DNA of 64,000 nucleotides, taken from assembly GCA_036744835.1 (NCBI GenBank), contig DAIOHD010000001.1, forward strand, positions 399,860 to 463,859, given 5' to 3'. A program made the position numbers and the translations under genes. Positions 1 to 23,976 of this stretch are shown here, piece by piece (the stretch's first letter is position 1; the number at the start of each line of letters is the position of its first letter). This DNA is from Candidatus Magasanikiibacteriota bacterium. GTDB taxonomy: Bacteria > Patescibacteriota > Patescibacteriia > Magasanikbacterales > GWA2-37-8. Under the pieces are notes generated by a model. It saw only the letters and a program-made list of their open reading frames with translations, did no database searches and was not told the origin of the DNA.

Positions 1-335
1 TAGATTTTAAAAATATTGATGAAAAATATAAAAAATTAGTTCGTAAAAATTCATTAGGTTTTGAAGTTTTTTCAAATGGAAAAAAAATAGAAAGCCCTGA
101 AGGTGCAGAATTAGCTGCTGTAAGGCAAATAGCTCATGAAATTTTAAAAACTTTTAAAAAAAATTATCCGCATAAAACAATGATAACAAAAAACACTGAT
201 TTTATATTAAGTGGAACAAATCTTTTAATTTCTAAAGTGGAATCTAAAAAAAATATATATAAAAATAAAATTGGCAGAAATGAAAAATGTATATGTGGTA
301 GTGGTAAAAAATATAAAAAATGTTGTGGAATATAA
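1..335 (+). CDS. secA: SecA preprotein translocase ATPase, C-terminal fragment (5' end cut by window edge)
   Basis: Frame 3 is open from the window start to TAA at 333-335. The C-terminus ...IGRNEKCICGSGKKYKKCCGI matches the SecA C-terminal zinc-binding motif (CxCxSGKKYKxCCG). Confidence 0.7.
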   Translation, partial: DFKNIDEKYKKLVRKNSLGFEVFSNGKKIESPEGAELAAVRQIAHEILKTFKKNYPHKTMITKNTDFILSGTNLLISKVESKKNIYKNKIGRNEKCICGSGKKYKKCCGI

Positions 336-364
336 TTTTTTAAAAAAAATTTTAAAATTAAAAT

Positions 365-649
365 ATGAAAAAATTTACAATTATTTTAAGTATTTTAGTT
401 GGTTTTTTTATTTTATTTGCATTTTTTATTTATTTTTTTGAATCTTATCAAAATATTAAAATCAGAAATGCCAATGCTTGTTATAATGAATTAACAAAAG
501 AAATTATCAAAGTTTGTGATAAAAAATGGGGTGAGCCAGGAAATGAATGTAGAAATGATTTTTTTTATAAAACCCCTTGTGGAAAAGCTATCAGAGAAGT
601 TTATTTTCCAAATAAAATTTGGGGAAATAATATTAAAAATATTAAATAA
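365..649 (+). CDS. hypothetical small secreted/membrane protein (N-terminal TM or signal segment, 6 Cys)
   Basis: 94-aa ORF from the track with a hydrophobic N-terminus and a Cys-rich tail. No recognisable family. Confidence 0.4.
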   Translation: MKKFTIILSILVGFFILFAFFIYFFESYQNIKIRNANACYNELTKEIIKVCDKKWGEPGNECRNDFFYKTPCGKAIREVYFPNKIWGNNIKNIK

Positions 650-655
650 ATTTAT

Positions 656-1009
656 ATGTCTCAAACCCTCAACATCCTATTCTTTACCATCATAATCATC
701 GCCGGATTTAGAATCTACGCGCTCAAACGCGAAATCGTCGCTTTATCCAAAGAATTGGAAAATGATAAAAAAGAATTTTCCACGCTTTCAAATTTTAACG
801 AAAAACAAATTGAGATAAAAAATAGAAATAAAGATAAGGTGATAAAAATGTTTGACAAACTAAGCAAAATTTCCAACAAAGACGTCGCCAAAGAATTGGA
901 TATCTCCAGCACCACATCTTTTCGTTATTTGGAGGAATTGGAAAAAGAGGGAAAGGTAAAACAGGTGAAGAAATGGGGAAGAGATGTAAAATATGTTTTG
1001 AATGGTTAA
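656..1009 (+). CDS. hypothetical membrane-anchored protein with C-terminal winged-helix (HTH)-like segment
   Basis: 117-aa ORF with an N-terminal TM helix, a coiled-coil middle, and a C-terminal segment DVAKELDISSTTSFRYLEELEKEGKV that resembles MarR/DeoR-type wHTH domains. Confidence 0.4.
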   Translation: MSQTLNILFFTIIIIAGFRIYALKREIVALSKELENDKKEFSTLSNFNEKQIEIKNRNKDKVIKMFDKLSKISNKDVAKELDISSTTSFRYLEELEKEGKVKQVKKWGRDVKYVLNG

Positions 1010-1040
1010 AAGTTGTTTTAGTAATTCAAATATTTTTAAT

Positions 1041-1096
1041 GACCAAACCCCAATGACCAATGACCAATCAAATCCCAATAACCAAATGCCCAAAAG
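1041..1096. repeat. (CCAAT-N)n repeat array, arm A (CCCAATGACCAATGACCAATCAAATCCCAATAACCAAATGCCC)
   Basis: Direct read of the sequence. It is inverted relative to the array at 1436-1490, and the two bracket the four-helix-bundle gene. Confidence 0.8.
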
Positions 1097-1448
1097 TAAG
1101 TATGATTTGGAAGAAAGAACAGCTTTGTTTTCAGAGAATTTAATAGACTTTTGTAAGAACATTAAACATAATACAATAACCACTCCTTTGATATCTCAAA
1201 TTGTCAGATCAGGTACTAGTATTGATGCTAATTATTGTGAAGCTGATGAAGCTAGTTCTAAAAAGGATTTTATCAATAAAATTTGTATTGCTATAAAGGA
1301 AACAAAAGAAACTAAATATTGGCTCCGAATCATAGCCCATACCGTGCCGGAACAAAAAGATATAGCTAGAATGCTTTGGAGAGAAGCCCAAGAATTAAAC
1401 CTAATCTTTGCCAGTATCATCAGAAGCTCTCGCGGTATTGGGAATTAG
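1086..1448 (+). CDS. four-helix-bundle protein (23S rRNA intervening-sequence protein / Avd-like family, TIGR02436/PF05635)
   Basis: MPKSKYDLEERTALFSENLIDFCKNIK...SQIVRSGTSIDANYCEADEASSKKDF...ETKYWLRIIAH follows the conserved pattern of this family. Start chosen at ATG 1086 because the upstream extension in the ORF track is encoded by the CCAAT repeat array. Confidence 0.75.
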   Translation: MPKSKYDLEERTALFSENLIDFCKNIKHNTITTPLISQIVRSGTSIDANYCEADEASSKKDFINKICIAIKETKETKYWLRIIAHTVPEQKDIARMLWREAQELNLIFASIIRSSRGIGN

Positions 1449-1490
1449 GAATTGGGTATTGATTGGGTATTGGGAATTGGACATTGGGAT
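1436..1490. repeat. (ATTGG-N)n repeat array, arm B (ATTGGGAATTAGGAATTGGGTATTGATTGGGTATTGGGAATTGGACATTGGGATT)
   Basis: Reverse-complement orientation of arm A. It overlaps the stop codon of the four-helix-bundle ORF. Confidence 0.8.
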
Positions 1491-1515
1491 TTTTCATCAG
1501 TTTTTAGCCAAAAAA

Positions 1516-1541
1516 AACACTCCAACCTAGGGTGAAGTGTT
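1516..1541. repeat. palindromic AACACTCCAACC-TAGG-GTGAAGTGTT element (terminator-like hairpin followed by TTTAAAA); family copy 1
   Basis: Imperfect 11-bp palindrome. Related copies lie at 58789-58814 (reverse orientation) and 63703-63730. Confidence 0.7.
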
Positions 1542-1566
1542 TAAAAAATAAATAATTTTAAATAAT

Positions 1567-2259
1567 ATGCCCAAACCTCGTCGCGTTGCCATTTTTGACA
1601 TTGACGGAACGATATTTCGCTCCAGTCTTTTGATTGAGATAACCGAAGCCTTGATAGATGAAGGTATATTTTCGCCCAAGACCAGAAATATTTACATGAA
1701 ACCTTACAAAAACTGGTCCAATCGCAAAGATACTTACGAGAAATATATTGATTCGGTAGTAACGGCTTTCTTGAAAAACATCAAAGGTGTTGATTATAAT
1801 ATTTTTACCAAAATTGTCAGAAGGGTGATAAATGCGAAAAAAGACCGGGTTTATCGTTACACTCGCGATTTGGTTCATGATCTCAAGAAGAAAGGTTTTT
1901 TTCTCCTGGCTATTTCTCAATCACCCAAAGAGCTTGTTCAAAATTTCGGTTATAAGATGGGCTTTGATAAAGTTTATGGTCAATATTATGAAGTTGGTAA
2001 AAACAAGAAATTTACCGGTAAAGTTTTATCATTAGAGATGACCGGTAACAAAGCCAATTTACTTAACCGCGCGTTGGAGAGAAACAATATTACTCTGAAA
2101 GGATCTGTTGGAGTTGGGGATAGTGAAAGCGACATTGCTTTTTTGAAAATGGTGGATAATCCGATTTGTTTCAATCCCAATAATAAACTTTATCAACACG
2201 CCAAAAAACATGGATGGAGTGTTATAATAGAAAGAAAAGATGTTGTGTATAAAATATAA
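1567..2259 (+). CDS. HAD-superfamily hydrolase, subfamily IB (phosphoserine-phosphatase-like)
   Basis: N-terminal FDIDGT (HAD motif I) and C-terminal GDSESDIAFL (motif IV). 230 aa. Confidence 0.8.
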   Translation: MPKPRRVAIFDIDGTIFRSSLLIEITEALIDEGIFSPKTRNIYMKPYKNWSNRKDTYEKYIDSVVTAFLKNIKGVDYNIFTKIVRRVINAKKDRVYRYTRDLVHDLKKKGFFLLAISQSPKELVQNFGYKMGFDKVYGQYYEVGKNKKFTGKVLSLEMTGNKANLLNRALERNNITLKGSVGVGDSESDIAFLKMVDNPICFNPNNKLYQHAKKHGWSVIIERKDVVYKI

Positions 2260-2280
2260 TCCGAATTTATAAATTTTATC

Positions 2281-2323
2281 CCGCCCGTCAACAACATGAG
2301 CTGTAGGCGATAGCAGGCGGGCG
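2281..2323. repeat. GC-rich inverted repeat (CCGCCCG ... CGGGCGG) downstream of the HAD gene
   Basis: 7-bp GC stem with a loop of about 27 nt and no U-tract. It may be a terminator or a REP-like element. Confidence 0.4.
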
Positions 2324-2379
2324 AAATTACAAAAAAATAATAAAAATTTAATTTAAAAATTTTTGAATAATATAAAATT

Positions 2380-3582
2380 ATGAAAAATCAATTTATTATT
2401 GAAAATAATATTAATGAATACGTAAAATATTATTCGAAAAGAATTTTGAAAGATCCGGAATTTTATAAAAAAGATGAAGCATATAAATATTTAGCAGTTT
2501 CCGTTTTTCAAAAAGAATTTGATTTAAATAAAAAAGATCTAGCATTAATGCTGAAAAAATCATTTTCAAAAGCTAGAAATTTAGTAGGATCTAGTCAATA
2601 TTTACCAGATTCAGTATTGATTGAATTTGCTAAAAAAGACCCAAGAAAAGTTTGTAAATTATTAAAAAATTTATTAACCGAAGGTTTCCCTGCAAAAGAA
2701 AGAATAGATGATTTTATTGAACAAATAAAAAATAATTTTCCTCTTCAAAAAAAACAATACTATATTGATGCGAGATTTTTGAGTTTTTTATTAGCTGCAT
2801 ATAATCCAAATAAATATTTTTATATAAAATCGAAAGAATATAAAAAATTTGCTCAAATGATTGGTTATGAATTAGATTTAAAAGGTTTATCGCAAGGAGA
2901 AAAATATCAAGCCATGGCTGAATTAGCCGAATTAACTAAAAGTATCTTAAAAAATAATAAAGAATTTAATCAAGTACATGAGTTGATTGTAGAAAGTTTT
3001 GACTATAAAGACCATTCAATAAGTTGGGGGACTTTCGATTTTATTTTTGATGTAGCCAGGAGAGAAGGAAATCAATTTGTTAAAGTTAAAGAGAAAATAA
3101 AAGAACAATCAAAGGTTGTTAATGCAAAGAAGGAATCAAGCGAAGAGTTTTTATTAGAAGAAGAAGTTGTTGACGAGATAAAAGAAAAATCAAAAGATGA
3201 AATTTTACAAGAAGCCAGAGAATTTAAACCTAAAGATAATATTGGGTATAAACAAAAAACAGGTGAATTTAAAGTTAGGATTGATAATGCAAGGCAGAAA
3301 ACTAGAGTAAAAATTTTAGAAAATTATATTTGCCAAGTTTGCGGCTTTACTTTTGAATTTCAAAATTCAGAAGGTAAAAAAAGAAAATATGCTGAAGCCG
3401 ATCACATTATAGAGAAATCTAATGGAGGTACAGAAGAAATAACCAATCTTTGGGTTCTTTGCCCAAATTGTCATATGAAAAAAACATTAAATGTTATCAA
3501 AATTGATCCAATAAAAAAAATAGTGACAGAAAATGGTAAAATAATTAAAATTAACGATAATCATTTGGGTTGGAATAAATAA
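2380..3582 (+). CDS. HNH endonuclease domain protein (unknown N-terminal domain, C-terminal HNH)
   Basis: C-terminus CQVCGF..x18..ADHIIEKSNGGTEEITNLWVLCPNCHMKK is a canonical HNH (CxxC...DH...N...CxxCH) motif. The N-terminal 300 aa has no family I recognise. Confidence 0.75.
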   Translation: MKNQFIIENNINEYVKYYSKRILKDPEFYKKDEAYKYLAVSVFQKEFDLNKKDLALMLKKSFSKARNLVGSSQYLPDSVLIEFAKKDPRKVCKLLKNLLTEGFPAKERIDDFIEQIKNNFPLQKKQYYIDARFLSFLLAAYNPNKYFYIKSKEYKKFAQMIGYELDLKGLSQGEKYQAMAELAELTKSILKNNKEFNQVHELIVESFDYKDHSISWGTFDFIFDVARREGNQFVKVKEKIKEQSKVVNAKKESSEEFLLEEEVVDEIKEKSKDEILQEAREFKPKDNIGYKQKTGEFKVRIDNARQKTRVKILENYICQVCGFTFEFQNSEGKKRKYAEADHIIEKSNGGTEEITNLWVLCPNCHMKKTLNVIKIDPIKKIVTENGKIIKINDNHLGWNK

Positions 3583-3588
3583 ATTTTT

Positions 3589-4815
3589 ATGAAACAATTC
3601 TCTCATTCCAAATTACAAGTTTATGAAAGATGTCCTTTGCAATATAAACTCAAATATCTTTCTGATATCAAAGTTAAGCGTGAGAATACAGTCGAAGCTT
3701 TTATGGGTTCGTGTGTTCATAGTGCATTGGAACTTCTTTATGATGATTTGTTAAAAACCAAACTAAATACATTGAAAGATTTGTTAGCTTTTTATCATAA
3801 AACATGGAAAGAAAATTGGGATGATGAAATCAAGATAAATAATAAAAAGTTTGATAAAAAACATTATTATAATTTGGGTAAGAAATGTATCCAAAATTAT
3901 TATGAAAAATATCACCCCTTTGACCAAGATCAGACTATAGGGATTGAAAATAAAATAAGTTTAAAATGGGGCGCCTATGAAGTAATGGGTTATATAGATA
4001 GGTTGTCTAGAGAAAAAAAGGGTGTTTACGCGGTACATGATTATAAAACCGGTAAAATGATGGAGCAAGAATACGCCGATAAAGATCGTCAATTGGCGCT
4101 TTATGCCATGGCGGTAAAAGAAAAGTTTAAAGAAGCAAAAACAGTGAAGTTGATTTGGCATTATGTCGCTTTTGGCGAAGATATTATTTCGCAACGTTCA
4201 AATGAAGAATTGAAGAAATTGAAAAAAGATATTTTGGAATTGATAAAAGAAATAAATCAAGCGGAAAAAGACGATAATTTTCCGGCTAAAGAAACGATGT
4301 GTGATTGGTGTAGTTTTTGGGAATATTGTCCCAAAAAGAAGCATCTATTCAAAATAAAAAAACTTCCCAAAAACGAGTATTTGAAAGAAAGCGGGGTAAA
4401 ATTGGCTGATAAGTATATTGAATTATCCGAAAAAAAATCAAAAATTAACAAGAAGGCAAAAACAGAAGTTGAAGATATCCAAAATGAAATAAAGAAAGTT
4501 GAAGAAGCCCTCTTGAAATACGCGGAAAAAAATAATATAGAAACTGTCCAGGGAGATAAAGCCAGAGTATTGATAAACAAAAAAAGCGTTTATATTTTTC
4601 CTAATAAAACTTCCGGTTTAGAAAATTATATTAAATTGGAAAAATTATTAAAAGAAACAAAGTATTGGAAAATGATCTCTGTAGTAAATAGTGGAAAATT
4701 GGAAGAGTTATTAGAAAAAGATATTTTTGACAAGGGTTTAAAAAAGAAAATAATAGCTTTGGCTCCAAAAGAAGAAACTATTAAAATTTCCATTAAGAAA
4801 AACAATGAAAAATAG
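3589..4815 (+). CDS. PD-(D/E)XK nuclease, RecB/Cas4-like (PDDEXK_1) with Fe-S-type Cys cluster and C-terminal extension
   Basis: N-terminal Cys (ERCPLQY), GYIDRL...AVHDYKTGK (D...D-x-K), QLALYA (QhxxY) and C-terminal CDWCSFWEYC. This is the Cas4/AddB-nuclease signature. A K/E-rich tail of about 150 aa follows. Confidence 0.75.
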   Translation: MKQFSHSKLQVYERCPLQYKLKYLSDIKVKRENTVEAFMGSCVHSALELLYDDLLKTKLNTLKDLLAFYHKTWKENWDDEIKINNKKFDKKHYYNLGKKCIQNYYEKYHPFDQDQTIGIENKISLKWGAYEVMGYIDRLSREKKGVYAVHDYKTGKMMEQEYADKDRQLALYAMAVKEKFKEAKTVKLIWHYVAFGEDIISQRSNEELKKLKKDILELIKEINQAEKDDNFPAKETMCDWCSFWEYCPKKKHLFKIKKLPKNEYLKESGVKLADKYIELSEKKSKINKKAKTEVEDIQNEIKKVEEALLKYAEKNNIETVQGDKARVLINKKSVYIFPNKTSGLENYIKLEKLLKETKYWKMISVVNSGKLEELLEKDIFDKGLKKKIIALAPKEETIKISIKKNNEK

Positions 4816-5374
4816 TATGGACTTACTTGTTAAGACAACAAAAAATAAGGAAAAGAAAAAAGAAGATAATTCTGATAAAAAAGAATTACTTTCTGTTGAT
4901 AAACATCCAAAAAGTGCGGAAAAATATCGCGAAGAGTGGTTTTTTGTTGATTATAAGCCAGCAAGAGAAAACATTTCTTATCAATTACAATATCTAGAGT
5001 TTTTGATAAATTTATACAATGATTATAAAATGTATTTGACCATAGAGTCTTTACATTGTAAAAATATCCTAATAACCCTAGCTTCCATTTTTGAAAGTGC
5101 TTTATTTGATTTGTTGTATCAAATAAACGAACAAAAAGGATTGGGGTTGGATATTAGAGAAGATTTTGTTAGTTTGATAGAATTGAGTTTTCGACATGGG
5201 TTAATAGATGGAAATATGAAATATTCACTTCATGAACTTCGAAAAGTACGTAATTTTGTACATATTTCTAGTTTGGAACATCAAGAATATCAAGCTTATA
5301 CAATTGAGCAAGTAAACTTATATCTTATATTATTAAATAATTTCCAAAAAAGAATGGAGGAAAAATTTAAATAA
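4805..5374 (+). CDS. hypothetical protein with C-terminal HEPN-like (Rx4-6H) motif; overlaps upstream gene by 11 nt
   Basis: 189 aa. ...YSLHELRKVRNFVHISS carries an R-x6-H / RN..H motif in a predicted helical C-terminal region, reminiscent of Abi/DUF4145-type HEPN domains. This assignment is tentative. Confidence 0.4.
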   Translation: MKNSMDLLVKTTKNKEKKKEDNSDKKELLSVDKHPKSAEKYREEWFFVDYKPARENISYQLQYLEFLINLYNDYKMYLTIESLHCKNILITLASIFESALFDLLYQINEQKGLGLDIREDFVSLIELSFRHGLIDGNMKYSLHELRKVRNFVHISSLEHQEYQAYTIEQVNLYLILLNNFQKRMEEKFK

Positions 5375-5504
5375 TATGATACTTATAATAGGAGTTGTAT
5401 TAATTTTGGTGATAGTTGGGGTAGCGAGTTGGTATTTTGTAGATTGAAAAAATTGCAAAGATTACAAAAATTGCAAAAATAAATAAAGTTATGAAGTAAA
5501 AAAT

Positions 5505-6044
5505 ATGAAAAAATATCTAATTTTCTTTTTAGTCATTTCTGTAGTAATTTTATCCGGTTGTAATAAAGCTACGGAAAACAAAGGTGGAGAATCGCAAAAT
5601 CAAGAACAAAAGCAAGAGCAAACAAAAAAAGGTGACATTAGCGACGATGTTTGTGCAGAGTTTAGTGCTGAGCTTGTCGGCAATGCGATGGGAAAAGAGG
5701 TGGTGAAAACAGAAGGTCCGAGTATGGCAAGTTTTTATAACTGCCGATATTATTTCAATTATGACGAAAAGACAAAGAAAGGTGATAATATTCTTTTGAA
5801 TTTAGAAAATTTGGATGTAGCGCGACAAAAAAGAGGTCATGAAATAATGGATAGAACAATAACTACCAATGATAAGATTAAAATGGAGCATTTTATGGCT
5901 ATGCAAGAAGATGGACAGATAAATTCTCTTTATCTAGTTTTAGGTCCAAATAGATTTATCTCTATCAACCGCAGTTCATTCAAAGCTGGAACAAATGAAG
6001 ATATTATCAATTTAGCGGAGAAATTGGCGGAAGAAATTAAATAG
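5505..6044 (+). CDS. lipoprotein, hypothetical
   Basis: Signal peptide plus lipobox (VVILSGC), followed by a low-complexity Q/E-rich linker. Confidence 0.5.
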   Translation: MKKYLIFFLVISVVILSGCNKATENKGGESQNQEQKQEQTKKGDISDDVCAEFSAELVGNAMGKEVVKTEGPSMASFYNCRYYFNYDEKTKKGDNILLNLENLDVARQKRGHEIMDRTITTNDKIKMEHFMAMQEDGQINSLYLVLGPNRFISINRSSFKAGTNEDIINLAEKLAEEIK

Positions 6045-6144
6045 GATACGAAATACGAAAAATTATGAAATTACGAACCGAATTTGAAAATTGATAATTA
6101 AAAATTAATTAAAAATTGTAAAATTAAAAATTAATTAAAAATTC

Positions 6145-6199
6145 ACCCCTGTGAAATTTCGCCGTAGGCGAACCCAACAAAGTTGGGATTTCACGGGGT
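6145..6199. repeat. GC-rich nested inverted repeat (outer stem CACCCCTGTGAAAT/ATTTCACGGGGT enclosing two small hairpins)
   Basis: Read directly from the sequence. Forms a three-way-junction-like fold with no U-tract. Intergenic between the lipoprotein and HIT genes. Confidence 0.5.
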
Positions 6200-6227
6200 A
6201 AAAAATTAAAAATTAAAAATTTTAATT

Positions 6228-6629
6228 ATGTCCAACTGTATTTTTTGCAAAATCATTGCCGGAGAAATTCCGAGTTTCAAAATCTATGAAGACGATTATG
6301 TTTTGGCTTTTTTAGATATTTTCCCGCACGCCAAAGGTCACACAGTCGTTATCCCGAAAAAACATTTGGAAAATATCGATGAATTTAGTGCCGAGGAATG
6401 GAATTTTTTGATGTCCGCGGTTCACAAAGTTGCCAAACGTGTGGAAGAAGTCCTCAAGCCCGACGGACTCAACATCGCGATGAATGATAAGCCTGTTGCC
6501 GGACAAGTAGTACCACACACTCATTGGCATATCTTGCCGAGATACGTTGGAGATGGGGGAGGATCAGTACATTCTATAATTAAAAATCCTGGTGATATAA
6601 AACCGGAGGAATTGATAAAATTATTTTAA
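6228..6629 (+). CDS. HIT-family (histidine triad) nucleotide hydrolase
   Basis: HTHWHILPR histidine-triad motif and an N-terminal CIFCKI. Confidence 0.85.
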   Translation: MSNCIFCKIIAGEIPSFKIYEDDYVLAFLDIFPHAKGHTVVIPKKHLENIDEFSAEEWNFLMSAVHKVAKRVEEVLKPDGLNIAMNDKPVAGQVVPHTHWHILPRYVGDGGGSVHSIIKNPGDIKPEELIKLF

Positions 6630-6632
6630 ATT

Positions 6633-7184
6633 ATGCGTAAAGCAAAAAAAACAGATGAGGAGATTATCCATCAAAATCCCTGGTGGACTTACAAACACGA
6701 TAAGTTTGAAAAAGAAGACGGCAGTGTCGGTGATTATTTTTATGTGCAAACAAACAATAGCGCGATGGTCGTACCTGTGCTTGATGACGGTCGGGTAGTA
6801 TTGATCAATCAATATCGTTATTTACAAGATAGGGAAAGTATAGAATTTCCTTGCGGGCAATTATTGGAAAACGAAGCACCATCAGAAGGTGCTAAGCGTG
6901 AATTATTCGAAGAAACCGGCTATAAAGGCGGGGATTTGATTAAAATAGGTAATTTTTGCGGTTTCAAAGGAGTGGGTAAAGATGAAACCCATCTATTCCT
7001 CGGGACCGATCTCAAACAAATAGATGAACCGCAAAAGGAAGACGATAGCGGAGAAATGGAAGTAATTTATCGTCGGGTGGATGAATTGGAGCAAATGGTT
7101 ATTGAAGGAAAAATTTGGGATGGCCAAACCCTGGCGGCCTTTGCTTTGGTTCGTGATCATCTTTATAAATTGATTACCTCGTAA
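6633..7184 (+). CDS. Nudix hydrolase
   Basis: Nudix box GQLLENEAPSEGAKRELFEETGY. Confidence 0.85.
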   Translation: MRKAKKTDEEIIHQNPWWTYKHDKFEKEDGSVGDYFYVQTNNSAMVVPVLDDGRVVLINQYRYLQDRESIEFPCGQLLENEAPSEGAKRELFEETGYKGGDLIKIGNFCGFKGVGKDETHLFLGTDLKQIDEPQKEDDSGEMEVIYRRVDELEQMVIEGKIWDGQTLAAFALVRDHLYKLITS

Positions 7185-7259
7185 AATTACAAAAGGGGAT
7201 GACTTCTTAGCAAATTTTTTGAGTTTGTGGTATAATACCCACCAGATTAAAGTTTTAAG

Positions 7260-9188
7260 ATGAGTGATAATTATTGGGACAATTTAGATGAAGAGCAAAA
7301 AAAAGAACCGGAGGAGTTTTACGCCTCTCCGGATGTTAATTATTTTGCCATGACCAATTTCCGCAATCAGATGCGTAAGTTTGGAATTAAGACTGATGAC
7401 CGTCGTCGTCATATGTATGTTATCGGTAAAACCGGTATGGGCAAGACGACCGTGATGGAAAATATGGTTTTAAATGATATTTATGCCGGGCACGGAGTCG
7501 GTTTGGTTGATCCTCATGGAGATTTTGCGGAAAAAATCATCAATTATATTCCGCCACGTCGTATCAATGATGTGGTATATTTTAATCCCGCAGACATTGA
7601 TTTTCCGGTTGGTTTTAATATATTTGAAACAGTTCGTCCGGAGCATAAACATTTGGTGGCCAGTGGTTTGATGGGAGTTTTCAAAAAGATTTGGGTGGAT
7701 ATGTGGAGTTCTCGTATGGAATACATTCTCAACAATACTATTTTGGCTCTTTTGGAATATCCAGGCACGACTCTACTTGGTATTAATCGTATGTTGGCTG
7801 ATGACGAATATCGCAATCGTATCGTGGCGAATTTGAAAGATCCGGTGGTCAAAGCTTTTTGGCAAAGTGAGTTTGCCGGTTACAATGATAGATACAAACA
7901 AGAAGCGGTCGCGCCTATCCAAAATAAAATCGGTCAATTTTTGTCCGCTTCTATTATTCGTAATATCGTGGCGCAAGTAAAAAGTAAAATTGATATTCGG
8001 GATATCATGGATAGTAAAAAGATTTTTATCATGAATCTTTCCAAAGGTAGAATCGGAGAGGATAATTCTCGGTTGCTAGGCGGTATGCTCATCACCAAAA
8101 TTCAACTTTCCGCCATGGAGCGTGTAGATCTGAAAGAAAGTGATCGTAAAGATTTCTTTTTGTATGTGGATGAATTTCAAAATTTTGCTACGGAAAGTTT
8201 TTCCAATATTTTATCTGAAGCTCGTAAATATCGTTTGGATTTGACGATGGCTCACCAATACATGGATCAGCTTGATGAGCATGTGCGCGCGGCGGTAATC
8301 GGTAACGTCGGCAGTATCGTCACTTACCGTGTCGGTTCTACCGATGCTGAAATTTTGGGTAAAGAATTTGCGCCGATTTTTACCGAAGAGGATTTGATAA
8401 ACTTACCCAAATACAATGTTTATTTGAAATTAATGATTGACGGGGTGGCTTCGCGTCCTTTTAGCGCGGTAACTTTACCACCGATTGGCAGACCAACCGA
8501 AAGTTTAGAAAAAGTGGTGCGGGTTTCTCGCGAGAGATATGCTGCTCCGCGTGATCAAATCGAAGATAAAATTATGCGTTGGAGTGGTATGGAAGATTCT
8601 ACCGGAGAAGATCGAGAGCTGGATGAAGATGAAATAGAATTTAACAAAGCGGCTCCATTGGTAAAAGCACCAGCACCGATAAATAAAGAAAAAAAGAGAG
8701 ATTTTCGTGGTGGTGATCGAGGTGGAGACAGGGGCAATGATAGAGGCGGGGATAGAAAGAAAAATAAAATGGACTTTGCTTCTCTACGTCCGGACCCTGT
8801 TTTTGTTCCACCCCCAACGGTGAGAATTCCTCGTAAAGAAAATATTCCGCCAAAACCGATAATAAGAACCGAACCAAAAATTATAGAACAAAAAAATCAA
8901 ACACTTTCTTTATCTTCGCTGCAAAATAGAACTGAAATAAAACCGCCGGAAAAATTAGCGCAAAAACTTCCACCAGAACCGATAGAAAAAGAGATAGAGG
9001 AAGTTGTACCACAAAGCATAAATTTCAGCGATTTGAAAAGATCTGCCAAACAACCTGTCAAACCGACTTTTAAACCACAAGAAAACAAAATAAATCCTCC
9101 AAAAAATAATAAACCTAGTAATGTTGTCAGTAATACGGGAGGATCAAAGCCATTAAAGCCAAATGATGTAGTGACTTTTGATGAATAG
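7260..9188 (+). CDS. TraG/VirD4/HerA-like (FtsK-HerA superfamily, DUF87-type) P-loop ATPase with long disordered P/K/RGG-rich C-terminal tail
   Basis: Walker A GKTGMGKTT, Walker B FLYVDEFQNF, and a TraG-like RKYRLDLTMAHQ. The C-terminal 200 aa are low complexity, including RDFRGGDRGGDRGNDRGGDR. Confidence 0.6.
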   Translation: MSDNYWDNLDEEQKKEPEEFYASPDVNYFAMTNFRNQMRKFGIKTDDRRRHMYVIGKTGMGKTTVMENMVLNDIYAGHGVGLVDPHGDFAEKIINYIPPRRINDVVYFNPADIDFPVGFNIFETVRPEHKHLVASGLMGVFKKIWVDMWSSRMEYILNNTILALLEYPGTTLLGINRMLADDEYRNRIVANLKDPVVKAFWQSEFAGYNDRYKQEAVAPIQNKIGQFLSASIIRNIVAQVKSKIDIRDIMDSKKIFIMNLSKGRIGEDNSRLLGGMLITKIQLSAMERVDLKESDRKDFFLYVDEFQNFATESFSNILSEARKYRLDLTMAHQYMDQLDEHVRAAVIGNVGSIVTYRVGSTDAEILGKEFAPIFTEEDLINLPKYNVYLKLMIDGVASRPFSAVTLPPIGRPTESLEKVVRVSRERYAAPRDQIEDKIMRWSGMEDSTGEDRELDEDEIEFNKAAPLVKAPAPINKEKKRDFRGGDRGGDRGNDRGGDRKKNKMDFASLRPDPVFVPPPTVRIPRKENIPPKPIIRTEPKIIEQKNQTLSLSSLQNRTEIKPPEKLAQKLPPEPIEKEIEEVVPQSINFSDLKRSAKQPVKPTFKPQENKINPPKNNKPSNVVSNTGGSKPLKPNDVVTFDE

Positions 9189-9194
9189 ATAGAC

Positions 9195-9223
9195 TTGACA
9201 AACTGGGTTTTTTGTGCTATAAT
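9195..9223 (+). promoter_or_regulatory. sigma-70 promoter TTGACA-17-TATAAT (perfect consensus) with about 115-nt 5' UTR
   Basis: TTGACA at 9195-9200, a 17-nt spacer, and TATAAT at 9218-9223, upstream of the zinc-ribbon gene. Confidence 0.75.
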
Positions 9224-9340
9224 AATGCCAAATAAGTTTGGGTTACGTACGTTTTTGTGACAAACAAGTAGTCGTTCCCAAAACAGGTCGTTTAATTAAA
9301 AATCCAAATAACATTTTGGGAAATAGTCACAAAAATTAAT

Positions 9341-9655
9341 ATGATGGACAGACAAATGTACTCGGTAGATGCTACTTGTGCGAAATGTGGCGCTCATATT
9401 TCTGAGCTTCCTTTCCAACCAAGCGGTGATCGCCCAGTGTATTGTTCTGACTGCAATCGTGAATTCCGCAACCGCAACCGTGATGACAGAGGCGGACGTG
9501 GATTCAACAATCGTGATCGCGGTCCAAAACAAATGTTTGATGTAGATGTTGTATGTGCAGGTTGTGGTGCCAAAATCACCAAATTGCCTTTCATGCCAAG
9601 AGATGGTGGAAAACCTATCTTGTGCATCGATTGTTTGAAAAAACAAAGAGCATAA
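9341..9655 (+). CDS. tandem zinc-ribbon protein with RG/RGG-rich linker (hypothetical nucleic-acid-binding)
   Basis: Two copies of C-x2-CG..I..LPF.P....P(V/I)(Y/L)C.DC are separated by RNRNRDDRGGRGFNNRDRG. Confidence 0.6.
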   Translation: MMDRQMYSVDATCAKCGAHISELPFQPSGDRPVYCSDCNREFRNRNRDDRGGRGFNNRDRGPKQMFDVDVVCAGCGAKITKLPFMPRDGGKPILCIDCLKKQRA

Positions 9656-9663
9656 AACAAAAA

Positions 9664-9690
9664 ATCACTCCTTCGGGAGTGATTTTTTAT
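9664..9690 (+). terminator. intrinsic terminator (ATCACTCC-TTCG-GGAGTGAT + T6)
   Basis: Perfect 8-bp stem with a UUCG loop and a U-tract. Confidence 0.85.
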
Positions 9691-9691
9691 A

Positions 9692-9772
9692 TCCCTCCCT
9701 CTGCCTGAGAGGGAGGTTAGGAGGGAGTGGGAGAGACTCCTCCCTAACCCTCCTCTTGAAGAAGAGGAGGGA
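9692..9772. repeat. three consecutive CCCTCC/GGAGGG hairpins (GC-rich repeat element, intergenic copy)
   Basis: H1 CCTCCCTC..GAGGGAGG, H2 TTAGGAGGGAG..CTCCTCCCTAA, H3 CCCTCCTCTT-GAAG-AAGAGGAGGG. A paralogous segment lies at 9966-10002 inside mnmA. Confidence 0.8.
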
Positions 9773-9820
9773 ATTTTGTAATCTAGAGACCATTGAAAAG
9801 AACGAAATTCTTTGTTATAA

Positions 9821-10942
9821 TTGCTCTATATGAAATCAAAGAAAAAGCCTGTAAAGGTGTTAGTTTGTATGTCCGGTGGTGTAGATTCGTCTGTCGCCGC
9901 CGCTCTTTTGGTTAAGGCCGGATATGATGTTACCGGCGCGTTTATGGTGAATTATGATGAGGTTTCCTCCTCTGCCCGAGAGGGGGCTAGGGGGAGTGGG
10001 AGCTGTTGGCGAGGGGATTATCAAGATGCTCTGCGAGTCGCTGCTAAACTTCATATTCCACTTCTACGTTTGAATTTTGTTCGGGAATACAAAAAAGCGG
10101 TTTTGGATTATATGTACGCTGAATATAAAAAAGGTAGAACTCCAAATCCGGATGTTTTGTGTAATAAATTTGTGAAGTTTGGGTTTTGGTTGAAAAAAAC
10201 AAAAGAACTCGGTTTTGGCTATATGGCGACGGGTCATTACGCGAAGTTAAGTAGAAAGTTGAAAGTAGAAAGTAGAAAGTTAAAAGATTTCGAAATTAAA
10301 TTATTACAAGCGAAAGATGACAACAAGGATCAAACTTATTTCTTGCATCAATTAAATCAAAATCAATTAAAACACGTCATGTTTCCTGTTGGCGGATATA
10401 TCAAAGATGAAGTTCGTAAATTGGCGGATAAATTTGATTTACCAACTGCCAAAAAAGAAGAAAGCATGGGTATTTGTTTTATCGGAGAAGTGCCAATGAA
10501 AGAATTTTTGCAGAAAAAAATAAAAACTAAAAAAGGAAAAATAATTTTAAATAATAGTAAAGAAGTTTTGGGCGAACACGAAGGCATCCCTTTTTATACT
10601 ATCGGACAAAGATTGGGTTTGAATAATAAACCTTATTTTGTGGTAAAAAAAGACGCAAAGAAAAATATTTTGTTTGTTGGATATGAAAATGACGAGGAAC
10701 TTTTGAAAAAAGAAATTGAAATAGAAAATGTGAATTGGATAAGTGGACAAAAGCCGAAATTGCCGTTAAAATGTGAAGTAAGGCTACGACACAGGCAACC
10801 CTTACAGCAGTGTCATTGCGAGACCGCAGGTCGCGGTAATCTTATTGTAAAGTTTAGTAACCCTCAAAAAGCAGTAACACCCGGTCAGTTTGCGGTTTTA
10901 TATAGCAAAGGTGTTTGTCTTGGTGGGGGAGTTGTAAAATAA
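9821..10942 (+). CDS. mnmA: tRNA-specific 2-thiouridylase MnmA
   Basis: PP-loop SGGVDSS, the motifs GRTPNPDVLCNK and NKDQTYFL, and the C-terminal AVTPGQFAVLY...GGG. The true start is probably ATG 9830. Contains two repeat-derived in-frame insertions (see findings). Confidence 0.9.
   Translation: MLYMKSKKKPVKVLVCMSGGVDSSVAAALLVKAGYDVTGAFMVNYDEVSSSAREGARGSGSCWRGDYQDALRVAAKLHIPLLRLNFVREYKKAVLDYMYAEYKKGRTPNPDVLCNKFVKFGFWLKKTKELGFGYMATGHYAKLSRKLKVESRKLKDFEIKLLQAKDDNKDQTYFLHQLNQNQLKHVMFPVGGYIKDEVRKLADKFDLPTAKKEESMGICFIGEVPMKEFLQKKIKTKKGKIILNNSKEVLGEHEGIPFYTIGQRLGLNNKPYFVVKKDAKKNILFVGYENDEELLKKEIEIENVNWISGQKPKLPLKCEVRLRHRQPLQQCHCETAGRGNLIVKFSNPQKAVTPGQFAVLYSKGVCLGGGVVK
10247..10280 (+). repeat. tandem AGTAGAAAGT x3 repeat inside mnmA coding sequence
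   Basis: AAGTTAAGTAGAAAGTTGAAAGTAGAAAGTAGAAAGTT encodes KLSRKLKVESRKLK, an insertion relative to the E. coli MnmA alignment. Confidence 0.7.
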
Positions 10943-10945
10943 AAT

Positions 10946-11179
10946 ATGACAACAACTATCGGTATAATCGGTGCGGGATTGGTTCTATTGGCTTTTATTA
11001 TGAATCAAACTAAAAAATGGAAAAATACGGATTTGATTTATGATTTCGTCAATTTCTTGGGCGCTTTAATATTGGTAATTTACGGTTTGATGATCAAAGG
11101 TTATCCTTTTGTTGTTTTGAATACCATTTGGGCGTTGGTATCGCTCAAAGATATTTTTATTGACTTAAAAAAGAAATAA
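10946..11179 (+). CDS. hypothetical small membrane protein (2 TM)
   Basis: 77-aa ORF with two hydrophobic helices. Confidence 0.4.
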   Translation: MTTTIGIIGAGLVLLAFIMNQTKKWKNTDLIYDFVNFLGALILVIYGLMIKGYPFVVLNTIWALVSLKDIFIDLKKK

Positions 11180-11182
11180 AAT

Positions 11183-11255
11183 GTCATCCCCGCGAAGGCG
11201 GGGATCCAGGAAAACATAAAATAACCCACTGGATTCCCGCCTTCGCGGGAATGAC
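11183..11255. repeat. long GC-rich inverted repeat (27-nt arms, each arm itself a CCCCGC-GAAG-GCGGGG-type hairpin) upstream of alaS
   Basis: GTCATCCCCGCGAAGGCGGGGATCCAG ... CTGGATTCCCGCCTTCGCGGGAATGAC. Cruciform-capable, with no U-tract on the + strand. Confidence 0.6.
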
Positions 11256-11278
11256 AAAATAAAAAAACAAAACAAAAT

Positions 11279-13102
11279 ATGTTAACATCTTTCGAACTTC
11301 GTCAAAAATATTTAGATTTTTTCAAAAGCAAGAACCATGCGATTATTGGTTCGGCTTCGGTAATCCCGGAAAATGATCCAACTGTTTTGTTTACCACAGC
11401 TGGGATGCATCCACTCGTGCCTTATTTGCTTGGAGCTAAACATCCAGCAGGTACTCGTTTGGCTGATGTGCAAAAATGTATTCGTACCGGAGACATTGAT
11501 GAAGTCGGTGACACCAGTCATTTTACTTTTTTTGAAATGCTTGGAAATTGGTCGCTGGGTGATTATTTTAAAGAAGATTCTATAAAATGGAGTTTTGAAT
11601 TTCTCACGGATAAAAAATGGCTGGGTTTGGATATCAAAAAATTGGCAGTGACGGTTTTTGAAGGTGACGCCGATGCACCGCGTGATGAATTTTCTGCTGA
11701 TATTTGGAAAAAAGCCGGGATGCCAGAAAATAGAATCGCTTATTTACCGAAAAAAAATAATTGGTGGGGACCAGCCGGTCAAACAGGTCCTTGTGGTCCG
11801 GATACAGAAATTTTTTATTGGCGGGGTATTGCTGAATTTCCGCCAGAGGATAGTAATCCAAAAACCGATGAAGAAAATTGGCTGGAAATTTGGAATAATG
11901 TTTTTATGGAATATTTTAAAAATGAAAAAGGTGAGTTTGAACCACTCGAACAAAAAAATGTTGATACTGGTATGGGGTTAGAACGCACGATTGCCGTGCT
12001 CAATGGTTTTGTGGATACTTATCAAATAGATACGATGTGGACATTGATTCAAAAGATTCAGGAAATTTCTGGACGTGAATATATAGAAAATAAAGATGTT
12101 ACCAAGGCTATGCGCGTGATTGCCGATCATTTGCGTACTTCTACAATGATCATGGGGGATGACAAAGGTATTGCTCCAAGCAATGTGGATCAAGGTTATA
12201 TCATTCGTCGTCTTATTCGTCGGGCGGTGCGTTACGGAAAAATGATTGGGTTAAAAGAAAATTTTTGTTCAACAATTTCAGAAAAAGTCATTGAAATTTT
12301 GGGTGATATTTATCCGGAGTTGATAAAAAATAAAGATTTTATTTTGACAGAAATGGCACGCGAAGAAAGTAAATTTCGAAATACTATAGAACAGGGGATA
12401 AAAGAATTCGAAAAATTGGTTGATGGTTTCCGTTTGGCATTTGAGAAGACCGGTAAATTGGTCAATCAAATTTCTGGTAAACAAGCTTTCAAACTTTATG
12501 ATACTTATGGTTTTCCCCTGGAGATGACAATGGAGCTGGCAAATGAAAATGGTTTGACGGTCGATGTAAATGATTTCGATATTGCTTTCAAGAGACATCA
12601 AGATTTATCTCGTGCTGGAGCAGAACAAAAGTTCAAAGGTGGTTTGGCAGATAATTCTGAAATTTCCACTAAATATCATACAGCTACACATTTACTTCAT
12701 GCATCTTTGCGAAAAGTATTAGGAGATCACGTAGCTCAACGTGGTAGTAATATTACCGCCGATCGTTTGCGTTTTGATTTTTCTCATCCGGAAAAAATGA
12801 CTGAGGAAGAAAAAAAACAAGTGGAAGAATTGGTTAATTCCACGATTGCCAAAAATTATCCTGTGAGTTTTGAAGAAATGACAGTAGAAGAAGCTAAAAA
12901 ACAAGGCGCAATGGGATTATTCGAAGATAAATATGGCACGTCGGTAAAAGTTTATACAGTTGGAAATGATACAGAAATATTTAGTAAAGAAATTTGCGGT
13001 GGTCCGCATGTGGAAAATACCGGTACACTTGGAAAATTTAAAATTATCAAAGAAGAAGCGGTTAGTTCTGGAGTACGTCGTATTAAAGCCATATTAGAAT
13101 AG
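11279..13102 (+). CDS. alaS: alanyl-tRNA synthetase (catalytic + tRNA-binding + editing domains; no C-Ala domain)
   Basis: N-terminal FTTAGMHPLVPYLLG and CIRTGDIDEVGDTSHFTFFEMLGNWS. Editing domain HTATHLLHASLRKVLG...CGGPHV. At 607 aa it ends right after the editing domain. Confidence 0.9.
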   Translation: MLTSFELRQKYLDFFKSKNHAIIGSASVIPENDPTVLFTTAGMHPLVPYLLGAKHPAGTRLADVQKCIRTGDIDEVGDTSHFTFFEMLGNWSLGDYFKEDSIKWSFEFLTDKKWLGLDIKKLAVTVFEGDADAPRDEFSADIWKKAGMPENRIAYLPKKNNWWGPAGQTGPCGPDTEIFYWRGIAEFPPEDSNPKTDEENWLEIWNNVFMEYFKNEKGEFEPLEQKNVDTGMGLERTIAVLNGFVDTYQIDTMWTLIQKIQEISGREYIENKDVTKAMRVIADHLRTSTMIMGDDKGIAPSNVDQGYIIRRLIRRAVRYGKMIGLKENFCSTISEKVIEILGDIYPELIKNKDFILTEMAREESKFRNTIEQGIKEFEKLVDGFRLAFEKTGKLVNQISGKQAFKLYDTYGFPLEMTMELANENGLTVDVNDFDIAFKRHQDLSRAGAEQKFKGGLADNSEISTKYHTATHLLHASLRKVLGDHVAQRGSNITADRLRFDFSHPEKMTEEEKKQVEELVNSTIAKNYPVSFEEMTVEEAKKQGAMGLFEDKYGTSVKVYTVGNDTEIFSKEICGGPHVENTGTLGKFKIIKEEAVSSGVRRIKAILE

Positions 13103-13103
13103 T

Positions 13104-13550
13104 ATGATATTGAATAAATATCTAAATTATCCTTGGTCGCACCGTGAACAATTTGTAAAATATTTTTTTATCGGTGTTTCGGGGACAATTTTAGATATTC
13201 TAACACTTTGGATTTTGAAAGAATTTTTTGGTTTACTACCAGTGATAGCTGTTGTTGTCAATCAGATCTTTATGTTGCTTTACATATTTTTTCTAAATAA
13301 AAAATTTAGTTTTCAAACCAAGGGAGATACACGCAAACAAATGGTCAGATTTTTTATCTTAGCCGGAGCCAATTATTTGTTTGCAATAAGTTGGATGTGG
13401 TTGTGGAGTCAATATTTCGGGTACAATTATGTATTGGTTAGAATCTGTAATATTGCCTTGGCCGTAGCTTGGAATTTTTTGTTATATAGAGAGTGGGTAT
13501 ATAAAGTGAGAAATGACCAAGTCCCAATGACCAATGACCAAAATCTCTAA
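13104..13550 (+). CDS. GtrA-family membrane protein
   Basis: 4-TM protein of about 130 aa with KYFFIGVSGTILDILTLWIL. The C-terminal codons (NDQVPMTNDQNL) are supplied by a CCAATGACCAA repeat. Confidence 0.65.
   Translation: MILNKYLNYPWSHREQFVKYFFIGVSGTILDILTLWILKEFFGLLPVIAVVVNQIFMLLYIFFLNKKFSFQTKGDTRKQMVRFFILAGANYLFAISWMWLWSQYFGYNYVLVRICNIALAVAWNFLLYREWVYKVRNDQVPMTNDQNL
13511..13548. repeat. (CCAAT-N)n repeat, single arm (AAATGACCAAGTCCCAATGACCAATGACCAAAATC)
   Basis: Same family as 1041-1096. It overlaps the GtrA ORF 3' end. Confidence 0.7.
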
Positions 13551-23975: not shown

Positions 23976-23976
23976 T

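Follow-up and report, generated by a model that had tools for sequence, protein, structure and literature searches.

What are the short tandem arrays that recur along the 64,000-nucleotide stretch of contig DAIOHD010000001.1 from a Candidatus Magasanikiibacteriota bacterium (hereafter the window), and why do two of them enclose a small gene for a four-helix-bundle (4HB) protein? A preliminary description of the window listed seven such arrays, related to CCAAT and its complement, and took them for a mobile or RNA-structural element family of the kind of miniature inverted-repeat transposable elements (MITEs) or repetitive extragenic palindromes (REPs). This was borne out in its main part: the 4HB gene and its arms form a discrete unit, occur in unrelated contexts, show a filled/empty polymorphism at a cas1|cas2 site and have copies without the open reading frame (ORF). 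We consider it likely, and say so with good confidence, that this is a discrete mobile cassette with ORF-less derivatives. Our whole reading goes further, to a horizontally mobile foldback cassette whose arms would form a stem in the transcript, whose pentameric protein would be its own factor and whose copying would take place on folded DNA; towards that larger set of claims we lean only slightly.

With 34% G+C and many simple repeats, the window is a place where such arrays might be chance or low-complexity artefacts. The motif CCAATNNCCAAT (CCAAT-N2-CCAAT) has 16 matches on the two strands, against a mean of 0.25 and a maximum of 2 in 100 dinucleotide-preserving shuffles of the window, and there are 11 clusters of at least three CCAA/TTGG cores, where 200 shuffles gave 0.33 on average and never more than 2. 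Seven of the 11 clusters are members of the CCAAT family, with spacings of 7, 7, 7, 11 and 7. Tandem Repeats Finder (TRF) independently reported arrays of period 7 and of period 25 in two copies at 1044-1093, 1437-1489, 13512-13541, 23913-23981, 59586-59695 and 60353-60457. All arrays of the preliminary description are present, at its coordinates or a few bases away. The architecture is also kept across 71 homologous loci with G+C contents from 0.32 to 0.64, and since shuffle counts and period-7 flank counts (below) both exceed their controls, the low-complexity expectation fails; we regard the chance of an artefact as negligible. One isolated unit pair without an array (CCAATTTCCAAT at 47220-47231, inside the long ORF 46720-48690) is probably itself a chance occurrence.

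Alignment of all nine arms of the window in register yielded two end types, left (L) and right (R). The gene and arrays of the family in the window are:

1029-1092, plus strand: L arm of the gene-bearing element (sequence, TRF, homology with the copy at locus L073)
1086-1448, plus strand: 4HB ORF (PF05635/TIGR02436), a 120-aa core, 131 aa from the ATG at 1053
1434-1493, plus strand: R arm of the same element (sequence, TRF, array detector, fold)
13511-13548, plus strand: solo13, a solo L-type arm that matches the L arm at 29 of 30 positions (score 50 with L, 28 with the reverse complement of R)
23869-23978, no strand assigned: hp23, a more diverged ORF-less hairpin with units TCCAATA/TCAAATN (fold, array detector)
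59575-59710, minus strand: hp59, an ORF-less copy between the rubrerythrin and desulfoferrodoxin genes, co-oriented with both
60340-60465, minus strand: hp60, an ORF-less copy in the leader or spacer upstream of the rubrerythrin gene (60270-59746, minus strand)

The element at 1029-1493 is a unit of about 465 nt made of L arm, 4HB ORF and R arm. The L arm starts with AATATTTTTAATGACC and continues in about seven units of the form [AC]CCAA[AT]N, one of them 11 nt long (CCAATCAAATC); it consists of two blocks of about 25 nt, each of three 7-nt units plus 4 nt, which TRF reports as period 7 and as period 25 in two copies. The R arm, which matches the reverse complement of the L arm imperfectly, holds about eight units ATTGG[GA]N and a mirrored irregular unit (ATTGATTGGG) and ends in ...CATTGGGATTTT. 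The inverted-repeat pairing of the arms proposed in the preliminary description stands, but their treatment as interchangeable mirror images does not: the arms have distinct L and R identities, so the hairpins have a polarity. In-frame ATGs lie within the L arm at 1053 (in a CCAATGA unit) and at 1086, and the TAG stop codon (1446-1448) lies inside the R arm, so that the arms enclose only the body of the ORF. Read from 1002 to 1448, the ORF has the N-terminus ...TPMTNDQSNPNNQ-MPKSK and the C-terminus ...GIGN*, and translation confirmed that the arrays donate terminal codons to it and to two other ORFs (13104-13550 and 22496-23914). In the closest subfamily, the sole in-frame ATG is inside the array and gives a conserved arm-encoded N-terminus, MTNDQ(S/P)NP...; L001, L002, L004-L007 and L013 share with the window copy an ATG within the array, 36 nt upstream of the point where homology sets in. 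The idea that the 11-nt unit serves solely to remove an in-frame TGA after the array-internal ATG was rejected, because the same 7k+4 phase shift is found in arrays without ATG or TGA and in the downstream arm. We recognised no promoter or Shine-Dalgarno sequence of its own in the cassette. The minimum-free-energy RNA fold of 1030-1500 is closed by an L:R stem.

The enclosed protein, bracketed by the array pair 1041-1096 and 1436-1490 as first described, matches PF05635 (E 8.3e-14, 52.2 bits, cut-off 33.8) and TIGR02436 (E 2.4e-20, 72.8 bits, cut-off 24). We know of no function assigned to this very large family, which has solved structures and gave at least 3,500 matches in our protein search. 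The window protein matches PDB entry 2rld (E 1.5e-16), and its AlphaFold2 monomer model (pLDDT 92.8) has helices at residues 8-24, 32-54, 59-86 and 88-115. In Foldseek the model aligned with 2rld and 2gsc at TM scores of 0.75-0.86 and with the diversity-generating retroelement (DGR) protein Avd (4dwl) at 0.68-0.74; a second Avd structure, 8ube, was also among the fold matches. Both 2rld and 2gsc were deposited with five chains each, and by homology with them the 4HB protein probably forms a homopentameric barrel. The conserved motif described for the PF05635 family, GxxRxxxSxxxNxxE (PMC3936711), is present as R41-x3-S45-x3-N49-x2-E52, with S45 invariant, N49 and E52 at least 90% conserved and Q38 at the glycine position in the subfamily of the window protein. 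Between the window and L073 copies dN/dS is about 0.06 (pS 0.60, pN 0.07), and over 55 pairs of 4HB copies the median pN/pS is 0.23. Because dN/dS is so low, the protein is, as far as substitution patterns can tell, functional and under purifying selection. No second 4HB gene was found in the window.

The fold match raises the question whether the ORF is an Avd left over from a degenerate DGR that has lost its reverse transcriptase and its template and variable repeats. DGRs are common in bacteria of the candidate phyla radiation (CPR), which, with the similarity to 4dwl and 8ube, speaks for that origin. Against it, the term Avd-like used in the preliminary description holds for the fold only: the sequence profile of the family reaches 2rld and 2gsc, not Avd. 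Gene calls with Pfam hits from about 10 kb upstream to 5 kb downstream of the 4HB gene contain no reverse transcriptase (template and variable repeats were not specifically searched for), and the repeat-armed layout is common to most of the 71 loci examined, none of them a DGR. We consider a DGR remnant extremely improbable.

These 71 loci, from a scan of one genome per species, encode 4HB relatives at 37-75% identity and span Patescibacteria, Omnitrophota, Planctomycetota, Margulisiibacteriota, Bacillota, Gemmatimonadales and others. Period 7 was the best period in 45 of 71 upstream and 40 of 71 downstream flanks, compared with 28 of 565 control segments. Aligned with the reverse complement of its downstream partner, the upstream arm scored 35 on average, against 14 for control pairs from the same locus (95th percentile 18.8). 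The unit itself differs by lineage (CCCAATG, ACGAATG, TCTAATG, TTTCAAT, TTTAAAT, ACCAGAA, GGTCGGA, AAAAGTA and others), and in most loci the downstream arm mirrors the upstream unit; a diverged 4HB subfamily uses units of about 8 nt. The L073 contig carries three 4HB paralogues within 10 kb, each with its own mirrored unit (periods 7, 9 and 7). In the lag profile, both arms have peaks at 7, 14 and 21, and the next one falls at 25 in preference to 28 (0.38 versus 0.30); each arm therefore consists of two blocks of about 25 nt offset by 4 nt. The usable evidence for this is the averaged profile, as a strict 7-7-[11]-7-7 detector found only 4 of 51 arms. Arms pair over a median of 51 positions at 77% complementarity, and their mismatches recur, with 1.44-fold enrichment at lag 7 and 1.39-fold at lag 1. 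The idea that the five protomers correspond to a set heptad number was dropped: with about 7-8 units per arm, no simple match results.

The same genomes also contain arrays away from the 4HB gene. These extra arrays ranked the local 4HB arms among their top three matches in 8 of 44 cases, where about 2 were expected, and many genomes carry further, unrelated array families. At L037, positions 75-224 form a CCAAT-type hairpin much like those of the window, while the local 4HB gene uses AATTTCC; several arm families can therefore coexist in one genome.

Does the unit move? A protein 88% identical to that of the window (P0007, at L073) has unrelated neighbours on both sides, and the two loci share 84% DNA identity over 467 nt, bounded by the arm tips, with homology starting at about 1029 and ending at about 1493. 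Within these limits the L arms are identical at 53 of 58 positions (91%), while the synonymous sites of the ORF differ at pS 0.60, so that the arms are conserved well beyond neutral expectation. Six further pairs, including one between Parcubacteria and Omnitrophota, have homology confined to 468-509 nt. Copies in unrelated contexts are 78-84% identical, and proteins from relatives assigned to different phyla reach 67-75% identity; among true orthologues (L023, L026 and L034), homology runs on through the flanks. At the junctions compared, each element ends in a short terminal inverted repeat.

The clearest insertion lies in cas operons. Two Nostoc plasmids have cas1 and cas2 either 2 nt apart or overlapping by 1 nt; Nostoc TCL26-01 and Anabaena cylindrica carry between these genes a 4HB cassette whose arms are (AAAAGTA)n (loci L157, L158, L163 and L164). 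Homology breaks off at ...CATCATCC TG and picks up again at the cas2 ATG; the end of cas1, about 66 nt or the last ~22 codons, has been replaced, and Cas1 now ends in arm-encoded residues (...SEVKSQKLKGKREE...). A CCTGT repeat at the Nostoc cas site, considered as a target-site duplication, is not common to Anabaena. As for the window copy, 80 metagenomic loci with orthologues of the downstream HAD gene (up to 89% amino-acid identity) contain neither the 4HB gene nor the HTH and HNH genes. Presence and absence at orthologous sites, which the preliminary description had proposed as a check, are thus seen at the cas1|cas2 site in Nostoc and Anabaena, and for the window copy as absence only, the site itself not being cleanly empty.

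These comparisons bear on the possibility that nothing moves and that the 4HB gene is an ordinary host gene equipped with cis-regulatory hairpins acting as stabilisers, terminators or couplers of translation. In cyanobacteria, short tandemly repeated repetitive elements (STRRs) form hairpins in operon spacers, and a role in stabilising transcripts or coupling translation has been suggested for them (PMC2670836); the hairpins of the window likewise lie in operon spacers, co-oriented with the operons, and arms abut neighbouring start and stop codons. Such a gene would not be expected to occur as seven pairs of near-identical gene-plus-arm units whose surroundings are unrelated and whose homology is bounded by the arm tips, nor would it give the filled/empty polymorphism, the antisense position of the cas copy in the operon it interrupts, the replaced Cas1 C-terminus, the absence from 80 orthologous HAD loci or the high identity between proteins from different phyla. 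We judge a purely cis-regulatory origin improbable.

The ORF-less copies of the window can be typed by the same ends. All three self-complementary pairs of the preliminary description (23869-23975, 59588-59696 and 60352-60450) were found again and fold as hairpins, with z scores from -2.1 to -5.5 relative to shuffles; in their stems, 5-bp CCAAU:AUUGG helices alternate with small internal loops. On the minus strand, hp59 reads as an L end (38 of 43 positions identical to the 4HB L arm), a loop of about 30 nt and an R end (40 of 43 identical to the 4HB R arm), with a summed orientation score of 132 on the minus against 55 on the plus strand and fold z scores of -2.8 to -3.5. For hp60 the orientation scores are 96 (minus) and 69 (plus), and the fold z score is about -4 on both strands. 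The order on the minus strand is hp60, rubrerythrin gene (rbr), hp59, desulfoferrodoxin gene (dfx), as described before; both hairpins and the operon being on that strand, the hairpins face the same way as their host operon. The GtrA-family ORF 13104-13550 takes its final ~14 codons and its stop region from the solo arm (AATGACCAAGTCCCAATGACCAATGACCAA) and ends ...VRNDQVPMTNDQNL*, beyond the GtrA domain, which stops at residue 132 of 148. The fourth copy, hp23, occupies the spacer between fmt (24870-23977, minus strand) and a Wzy_C membrane ORF (minus strand); it folds better on the minus (z -5.5) than on the plus strand (z -2.1), and with orientation scores of 68 and 57 its polarity is ambiguous, the copy being too diverged to orient. 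The Wzy_C ORF (22496-23914) begins with MIFVVDLTLDIGNLI inside hp23, and its annotated start is probably over-extended. Domain searches confirmed the neighbours as rubrerythrin, desulfoferrodoxin, GtrA, Fmt and a Wzy-like protein, and we found no ORF remnant in the hairpin loops. Judged by their ends, hp59, hp60 and solo13 are derivatives of the 4HB element that have no ORF, and hp23 probably is one too.

The preliminary description had also offered the arrays as binding sites of an oxidative-stress regulator, two hairpins flanking rubrerythrin and one of these standing between rubrerythrin and desulfoferrodoxin. The same L- and R-ended sequences enclose the 4HB gene, end the GtrA ORF and separate fmt from the Wzy-like gene, and homologous structures elsewhere lie between tRNA, cas and DISARM genes, with no common functional theme. 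That proposal is accordingly very improbable.

Cumulative GC skew rises over the window to about 40 kb and then falls, which suggests a change of replication direction near that point. All copies that can be oriented (the 4HB element and solo13 on the plus strand, hp59 and hp60 on the minus strand) are co-oriented with the inferred leading strand and with neighbouring genes.

Beyond the window, 4HB elements are found in DISARM and restriction-modification operons, a fatty-acid gene pair and cas operons, and at L068 between tRNA-Thr and tRNA-Trp. The upstream neighbour was co-oriented in 56 of 66 loci; the gap to it, made up for the most part of arm, has a median of 106 nt. A tRNA operon at L046 (3435-4284) has the order Gly, Leu, hairpin, Arg, hairpin, His, with a gene-bearing element upstream; its Leu-Arg and Arg-His spacers are filled to within about 6 nt by ORF-less hairpins built of the same unit as the upstream 4HB cassette. 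In a Planktothrix agardhii plasmid (L165, NZ_LR882964.1), (CGTAAAT)n/(ATTTACG)n arrays at 13013-13847 and 23368-23674 occupy the spacers of a DISARM operon, starting at the drmD and drmA stop codons and ending at the start codons of the MmeI-type gene and drmB. One L-type array of about 28 units there runs into the drmB ATG, and degenerate array remnants lie within the coding regions of the MmeI-type gene and drmA.

How might such a cassette work? It would probably be expressed from host read-through transcripts, since it lacks a promoter and Shine-Dalgarno sequence of its own and is usually co-oriented with the upstream gene. The arms of the transcript would pair into a stem of about 50 positions at about 77% complementarity, with a mismatch of 1-2 nt roughly once per heptad. 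This stem would bring the host flanks together, so that the element could be tolerated inside rRNA helices, tRNA spacers and operons, and it may be an RNase III substrate for excision, as shown for Coxiella's 23S rRNA intervening sequence (IVS). The pentameric 4HB protein would then be the element's own factor and may bind the periodically mismatched stem in the manner of DGR Avd. We offer this RNA-stem and protein-binding mechanism, which is modelled on those two systems, as tentative and somewhat more doubtful than probable. Propagation and arm maintenance more likely act on folded DNA (a foldback or cruciform structure, with recombination, slippage or template switching) than by DDE transposition. 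Copying at the DNA level is suggested by the lack of a G:U excess in the arms, the lack of a target-site duplication and the antisense cas copy, and it would fit the fast expansion and contraction of the arrays, whose length changes between the Anabaena and Nostoc arms and reaches 28 units in Planktothrix.

Several observations weigh against our reading. Among 55 arm pairs, G:U-type and A.C-type mismatches number 89 and 91, so there is no RNA-strand signature and the pairing could be kept purely at the DNA level. The fold of the whole element barely beats shuffled sequences (z -1.95). Arms are weak or undetectable in roughly a fifth of the homologues. Most loci come from metagenome-assembled genomes, in which mis-binning could explain part of the cross-phylum identity; plasmids of cultured strains show the same layout. 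We found no clean empty site for the window copy: homology with the three closest relatives is limited to the HAD gene, and because the segment upstream of that gene is not conserved, the HAD loci show non-conservation. The cas1|cas2 cassette is antisense to its operon, which makes orientation non-obligatory, and the 85% co-orientation with upstream neighbours lies near the 76% that adjacent genes of these genomes show as a baseline, which makes it gene-like rather than random. No target-site duplication was present at 12 junction pairs or at the cas1|cas2 insertion, and Pfam and TIGRFAM searches recognised no transposase, integrase or nuclease domain in the element; these negatives leave the mobility unaccounted for and would be compatible with the 4HB gene as cargo. 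Three spacers of the DISARM operon of Planktothrix have their arrays ordered R...L, which a simple one-cassette model does not account for; either several genes there are each bracketed as L-gene-R, or arrays may spread and expand from their neighbours. Finally, we know of binding, cleavage or transposition experiments in this family only for the Coxiella IVS and Avd.

Some of these points would fit a model in which the arms are DNA-level terminal inverted repeats recognised by an enzyme in trans, with the 4HB gene as passenger cargo and RNA folding incidental. Y1/HUH transposases (RAYT-like or of the IS200/IS605 type), a tyrosine recombinase and a replication-slippage or hairpin-repair pathway would be candidates, and we weigh them jointly. 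Pairing without a G:U excess, the lack of target-site duplications as in hairpin- or ssDNA-based systems, the persistence of ORF-less copies that keep their polarity, the quick growth and shrinkage of arrays and the uniform orientation of the window copies relative to skew-inferred replication would all follow. What this account leaves aside is that the arms co-occur with this single ORF family across several phyla, and that each protein lineage has its own unit, with three unit types for three paralogues on one contig, which suggests that protein and arms are matched. Purifying selection on the ORF within the mobile unit is moreover strong, the arms contain both its start and its stop codon, and no candidate enzyme in trans was identified. 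We hold the passenger model to be rather unlikely and keep to a cassette served by its own protein.

How does this cassette relate to known systems? ORF-bearing 23S rRNA IVSs (Leptospira, Coxiella burnetii and the Xanthomonas-type S23p) share with the window element the protein family and an ORF within stem-forming inverted repeats. In Coxiella, three to four tandem GACAGAT heptamers, in strain-variable number, immediately precede the S23p ATG, and the IVS has a 28-bp terminal stem that RNase III cleaves at the first repeat; its authors argued that the ORF is decaying and untranslated (PMC4990558). The IVS is regarded as a selfish element of unexplained mobility. CPR rRNA insertions encode the 4HB family at scattered 16S and 23S sites (bioRxiv 10.1101/2024.02.27.582315). 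The preliminary description was therefore right to see an IVS-type architecture outside rRNA, the Coxiella IVS having the same heptamer, stem and ORF layout. Terminal inverted repeats enclose the S23p-type ORF here as well, as seen from the L:R stem and from arm complementarity above controls, but the neighbours of the window copy are protein genes, and none of 76 4HB loci has conserved rRNA motifs in its surroundings; these copies lie in mRNA and tRNA operon spacers. Within the window no Rfam family reaches its gathering score. The window ORF also differs from that of Coxiella in being under strong purifying selection. Two-block heptad geometry, L/R polarity and ORF-less derivatives are not described for IVSs in the literature we searched.

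The STRR sequences of cyanobacteria resemble the arrays of the window in their tandem heptamers, hairpins and intergenic location. STRR heptamers were described in 1990 and used for strain typing, and the window unit TGACCAA is presumably the reverse complement of STRR2 (TTGGTCA). In print, they are tandem 7-nt units that form hairpins in operon spacers such as hupS-hupL, with function not known (PMC2670836), and they are reported from inside the RNase P RNA gene as well (Vioque 1997). They differ in having been described from heterocystous cyanobacteria without an associated gene, whereas in the window, whose proteins have their closest relatives in Patescibacteria/CPR, arrays end a gene cassette. 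The R...L-ordered and very long Planktothrix arrays fall outside the cassette model. In Nostoc, Anabaena and Planktothrix plasmids STRR-like arrays do form the arms of 4HB genes, and a link between the 4HB element and the cyanobacterial heptamers is probable. No paper in the literature we searched generalises heptad arms to the 4HB family or ties them to STRR repeats.

REP-derived hairpins and their RAYT transposases (REPIN/RAYT, or REPtrons) offer another parallel, a single-copy gene between inverted palindromic repeats with gene-less hairpin copies and no target-site duplication; dispersed gene-less palindromic copies are present here as hp59, hp60, hp23 and solo13. The window gene, by contrast, is a 120-aa four-helix bundle without HUH/Y1 motifs that matches only PF05635/TIGR02436, its arms are heptamer arrays and not a single ~35-nt palindrome, and the whole unit occurs in unrelated contexts and taxa. 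MITEs and Correia elements are likewise small, bounded by terminal inverted repeats, intergenic and co-transcribed as hairpins, and Correia stems are RNase III substrates. They differ from the cassette, which has no target-site duplication and no DDE-type autonomous partner and whose gene-bearing form encodes the 4HB protein only. Of the MITE/REP-like label, then, the mobile part holds, and the strict sense of a MITE does not, given the missing duplication and a gene-bearing partner without a recognisable transposase. Eukaryotic Foldback elements, some of them with a coding centre, carry long inverted arms composed of short tandem repeats, and in those arms they resemble the window element.

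The DGR comparison is the one that suggests a ligand. In the DGR ribonucleoprotein, five Avd protomers contact an imperfect stem-loop beside avd, flipped-out bases enter crevices between protomers, and 3' codons of avd pair with downstream RNA (bioRxiv 10.1101/2023.10.23.563531). The 4HB protein shares the fold and probably the pentameric barrel, and its ORF likewise has its 3' codons in a periodically mismatched stem. Because Avd takes up flipped-out bases of an imperfect stem, the 4HB protein could plausibly have a comparable ligand in a heptad stem that carries one small mismatch per unit. The differences are that no reverse transcriptase or template and variable repeats were seen, that the profile misses Avd and that heptad arrays stand on both sides of the gene. 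The element works like an ORF-bearing rRNA IVS without being one by location, is STRR-like in a CPR bacterium, and is not a DGR.

By the same analogy, the pentamer could be a sequence- and shape-specific recognition protein that takes one flipped-out base per protomer crevice and drives copying, excision or maintenance without a recognisable nuclease, transposase or recombinase; it could even be the ancestral module from which DGRs recruited Avd. We think this unlikely. If it were so, it would account together for the origin of rRNA IVSs with an ORF, for the STRR repeats of cyanobacteria and for the CRISPR association reported for the family.

At present, rRNA IVSs, STRR heptamers and the CRISPR-Cas association are three separate literatures on one protein family. 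Ribosomal IVSs have been a puzzle since about 1990. The 4HB family has been reported within cas loci, for example between cmr3 and cmr2 (PMC3936711). Our comparison points to a single entity behind the IVS and the cas-locus cases, a self-contained gene cassette with repeat arms that lands in transcribed spacers. If this is true, the cas association of the family reflects insertion rather than function; the ORF-less hairpins would be the source of at least part of the STRR-type repeats and of similar repeats in CPR bacteria, Planctomycetota, Omnitrophota and Chloroflexota; and the function of the 4HB family becomes directly testable. For annotation, arms are routinely translated as spurious N- or C-terminal extensions, as in the 4HB gene itself, GtrA, Wzy and Cas1.

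The neighbourhood of the cassette (window positions 1-15000) resembles a defence island. It contains DUF3800, SNase, a type III restriction-modification methylase, an OLD-like TOPRIM/AAA protein and a DEAD/ResIII helicase, and continues with SEC-C, HTH, the 4HB gene, HAD, HNH and PD-(D/E)XK (gene calls of L072). Conservation in the closest relatives is limited to the HAD gene, so the island is a synteny breakpoint.

Other repeats are dispersed in the same stretch. A second heptamer family (AAGTAGA/AGAAAGT) is found at 10247-10289 (plus strand) and 46692-46726, with about 20 nt in common (AAGTTGAAAGTAGAAAGTTA). The first copy lies inside the long ORF 9821-10942 (MnmA-like by eye), where it encodes ...KLSRKLKVESRKLKDF..., and the second, in reverse complement, fills the 43-nt spacer between ORFs 46272-46676 and 46720-48690 (the latter PBP2-like by eye). 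Tandem arrays of 9 nt occur at 5443-5481 (ATTGCAAAA) and, as a reverse-complement-like partner 58 kb away, at 63737-63773 (TTTGTAATC).

A 26-nt GC-containing palindrome (AACACTTCACCCTAGGTTGGAGTGTT) is present at 1516-1541 (minus strand) and 58789-58814 (plus strand), with 0 and 1 mismatch where 0 occurrences are expected. One copy lies just downstream of the 4HB cassette and the other about 75 nt downstream of a small GIY-YIG gene, so that it looks like a second dispersed, terminator-like repeat tied to small inserted genes. That gene (58889-59173, minus strand) encodes a stand-alone GIY-YIG nuclease of 94 aa directly after dfx. In the DISARM operon of Planktothrix (L165, 18540-19400), a comparable small GIY-YIG gene has on either side inverted-repeat hairpins of about 60 nt that form a family of their own (GTCATTCTGAGTGAAACGAAGAATCTC...GAGATCCTTCATTTCGCT.CGCTACATTCAGGATGAC), and together with them it is a second kind of small-gene cassette in operon spacers.

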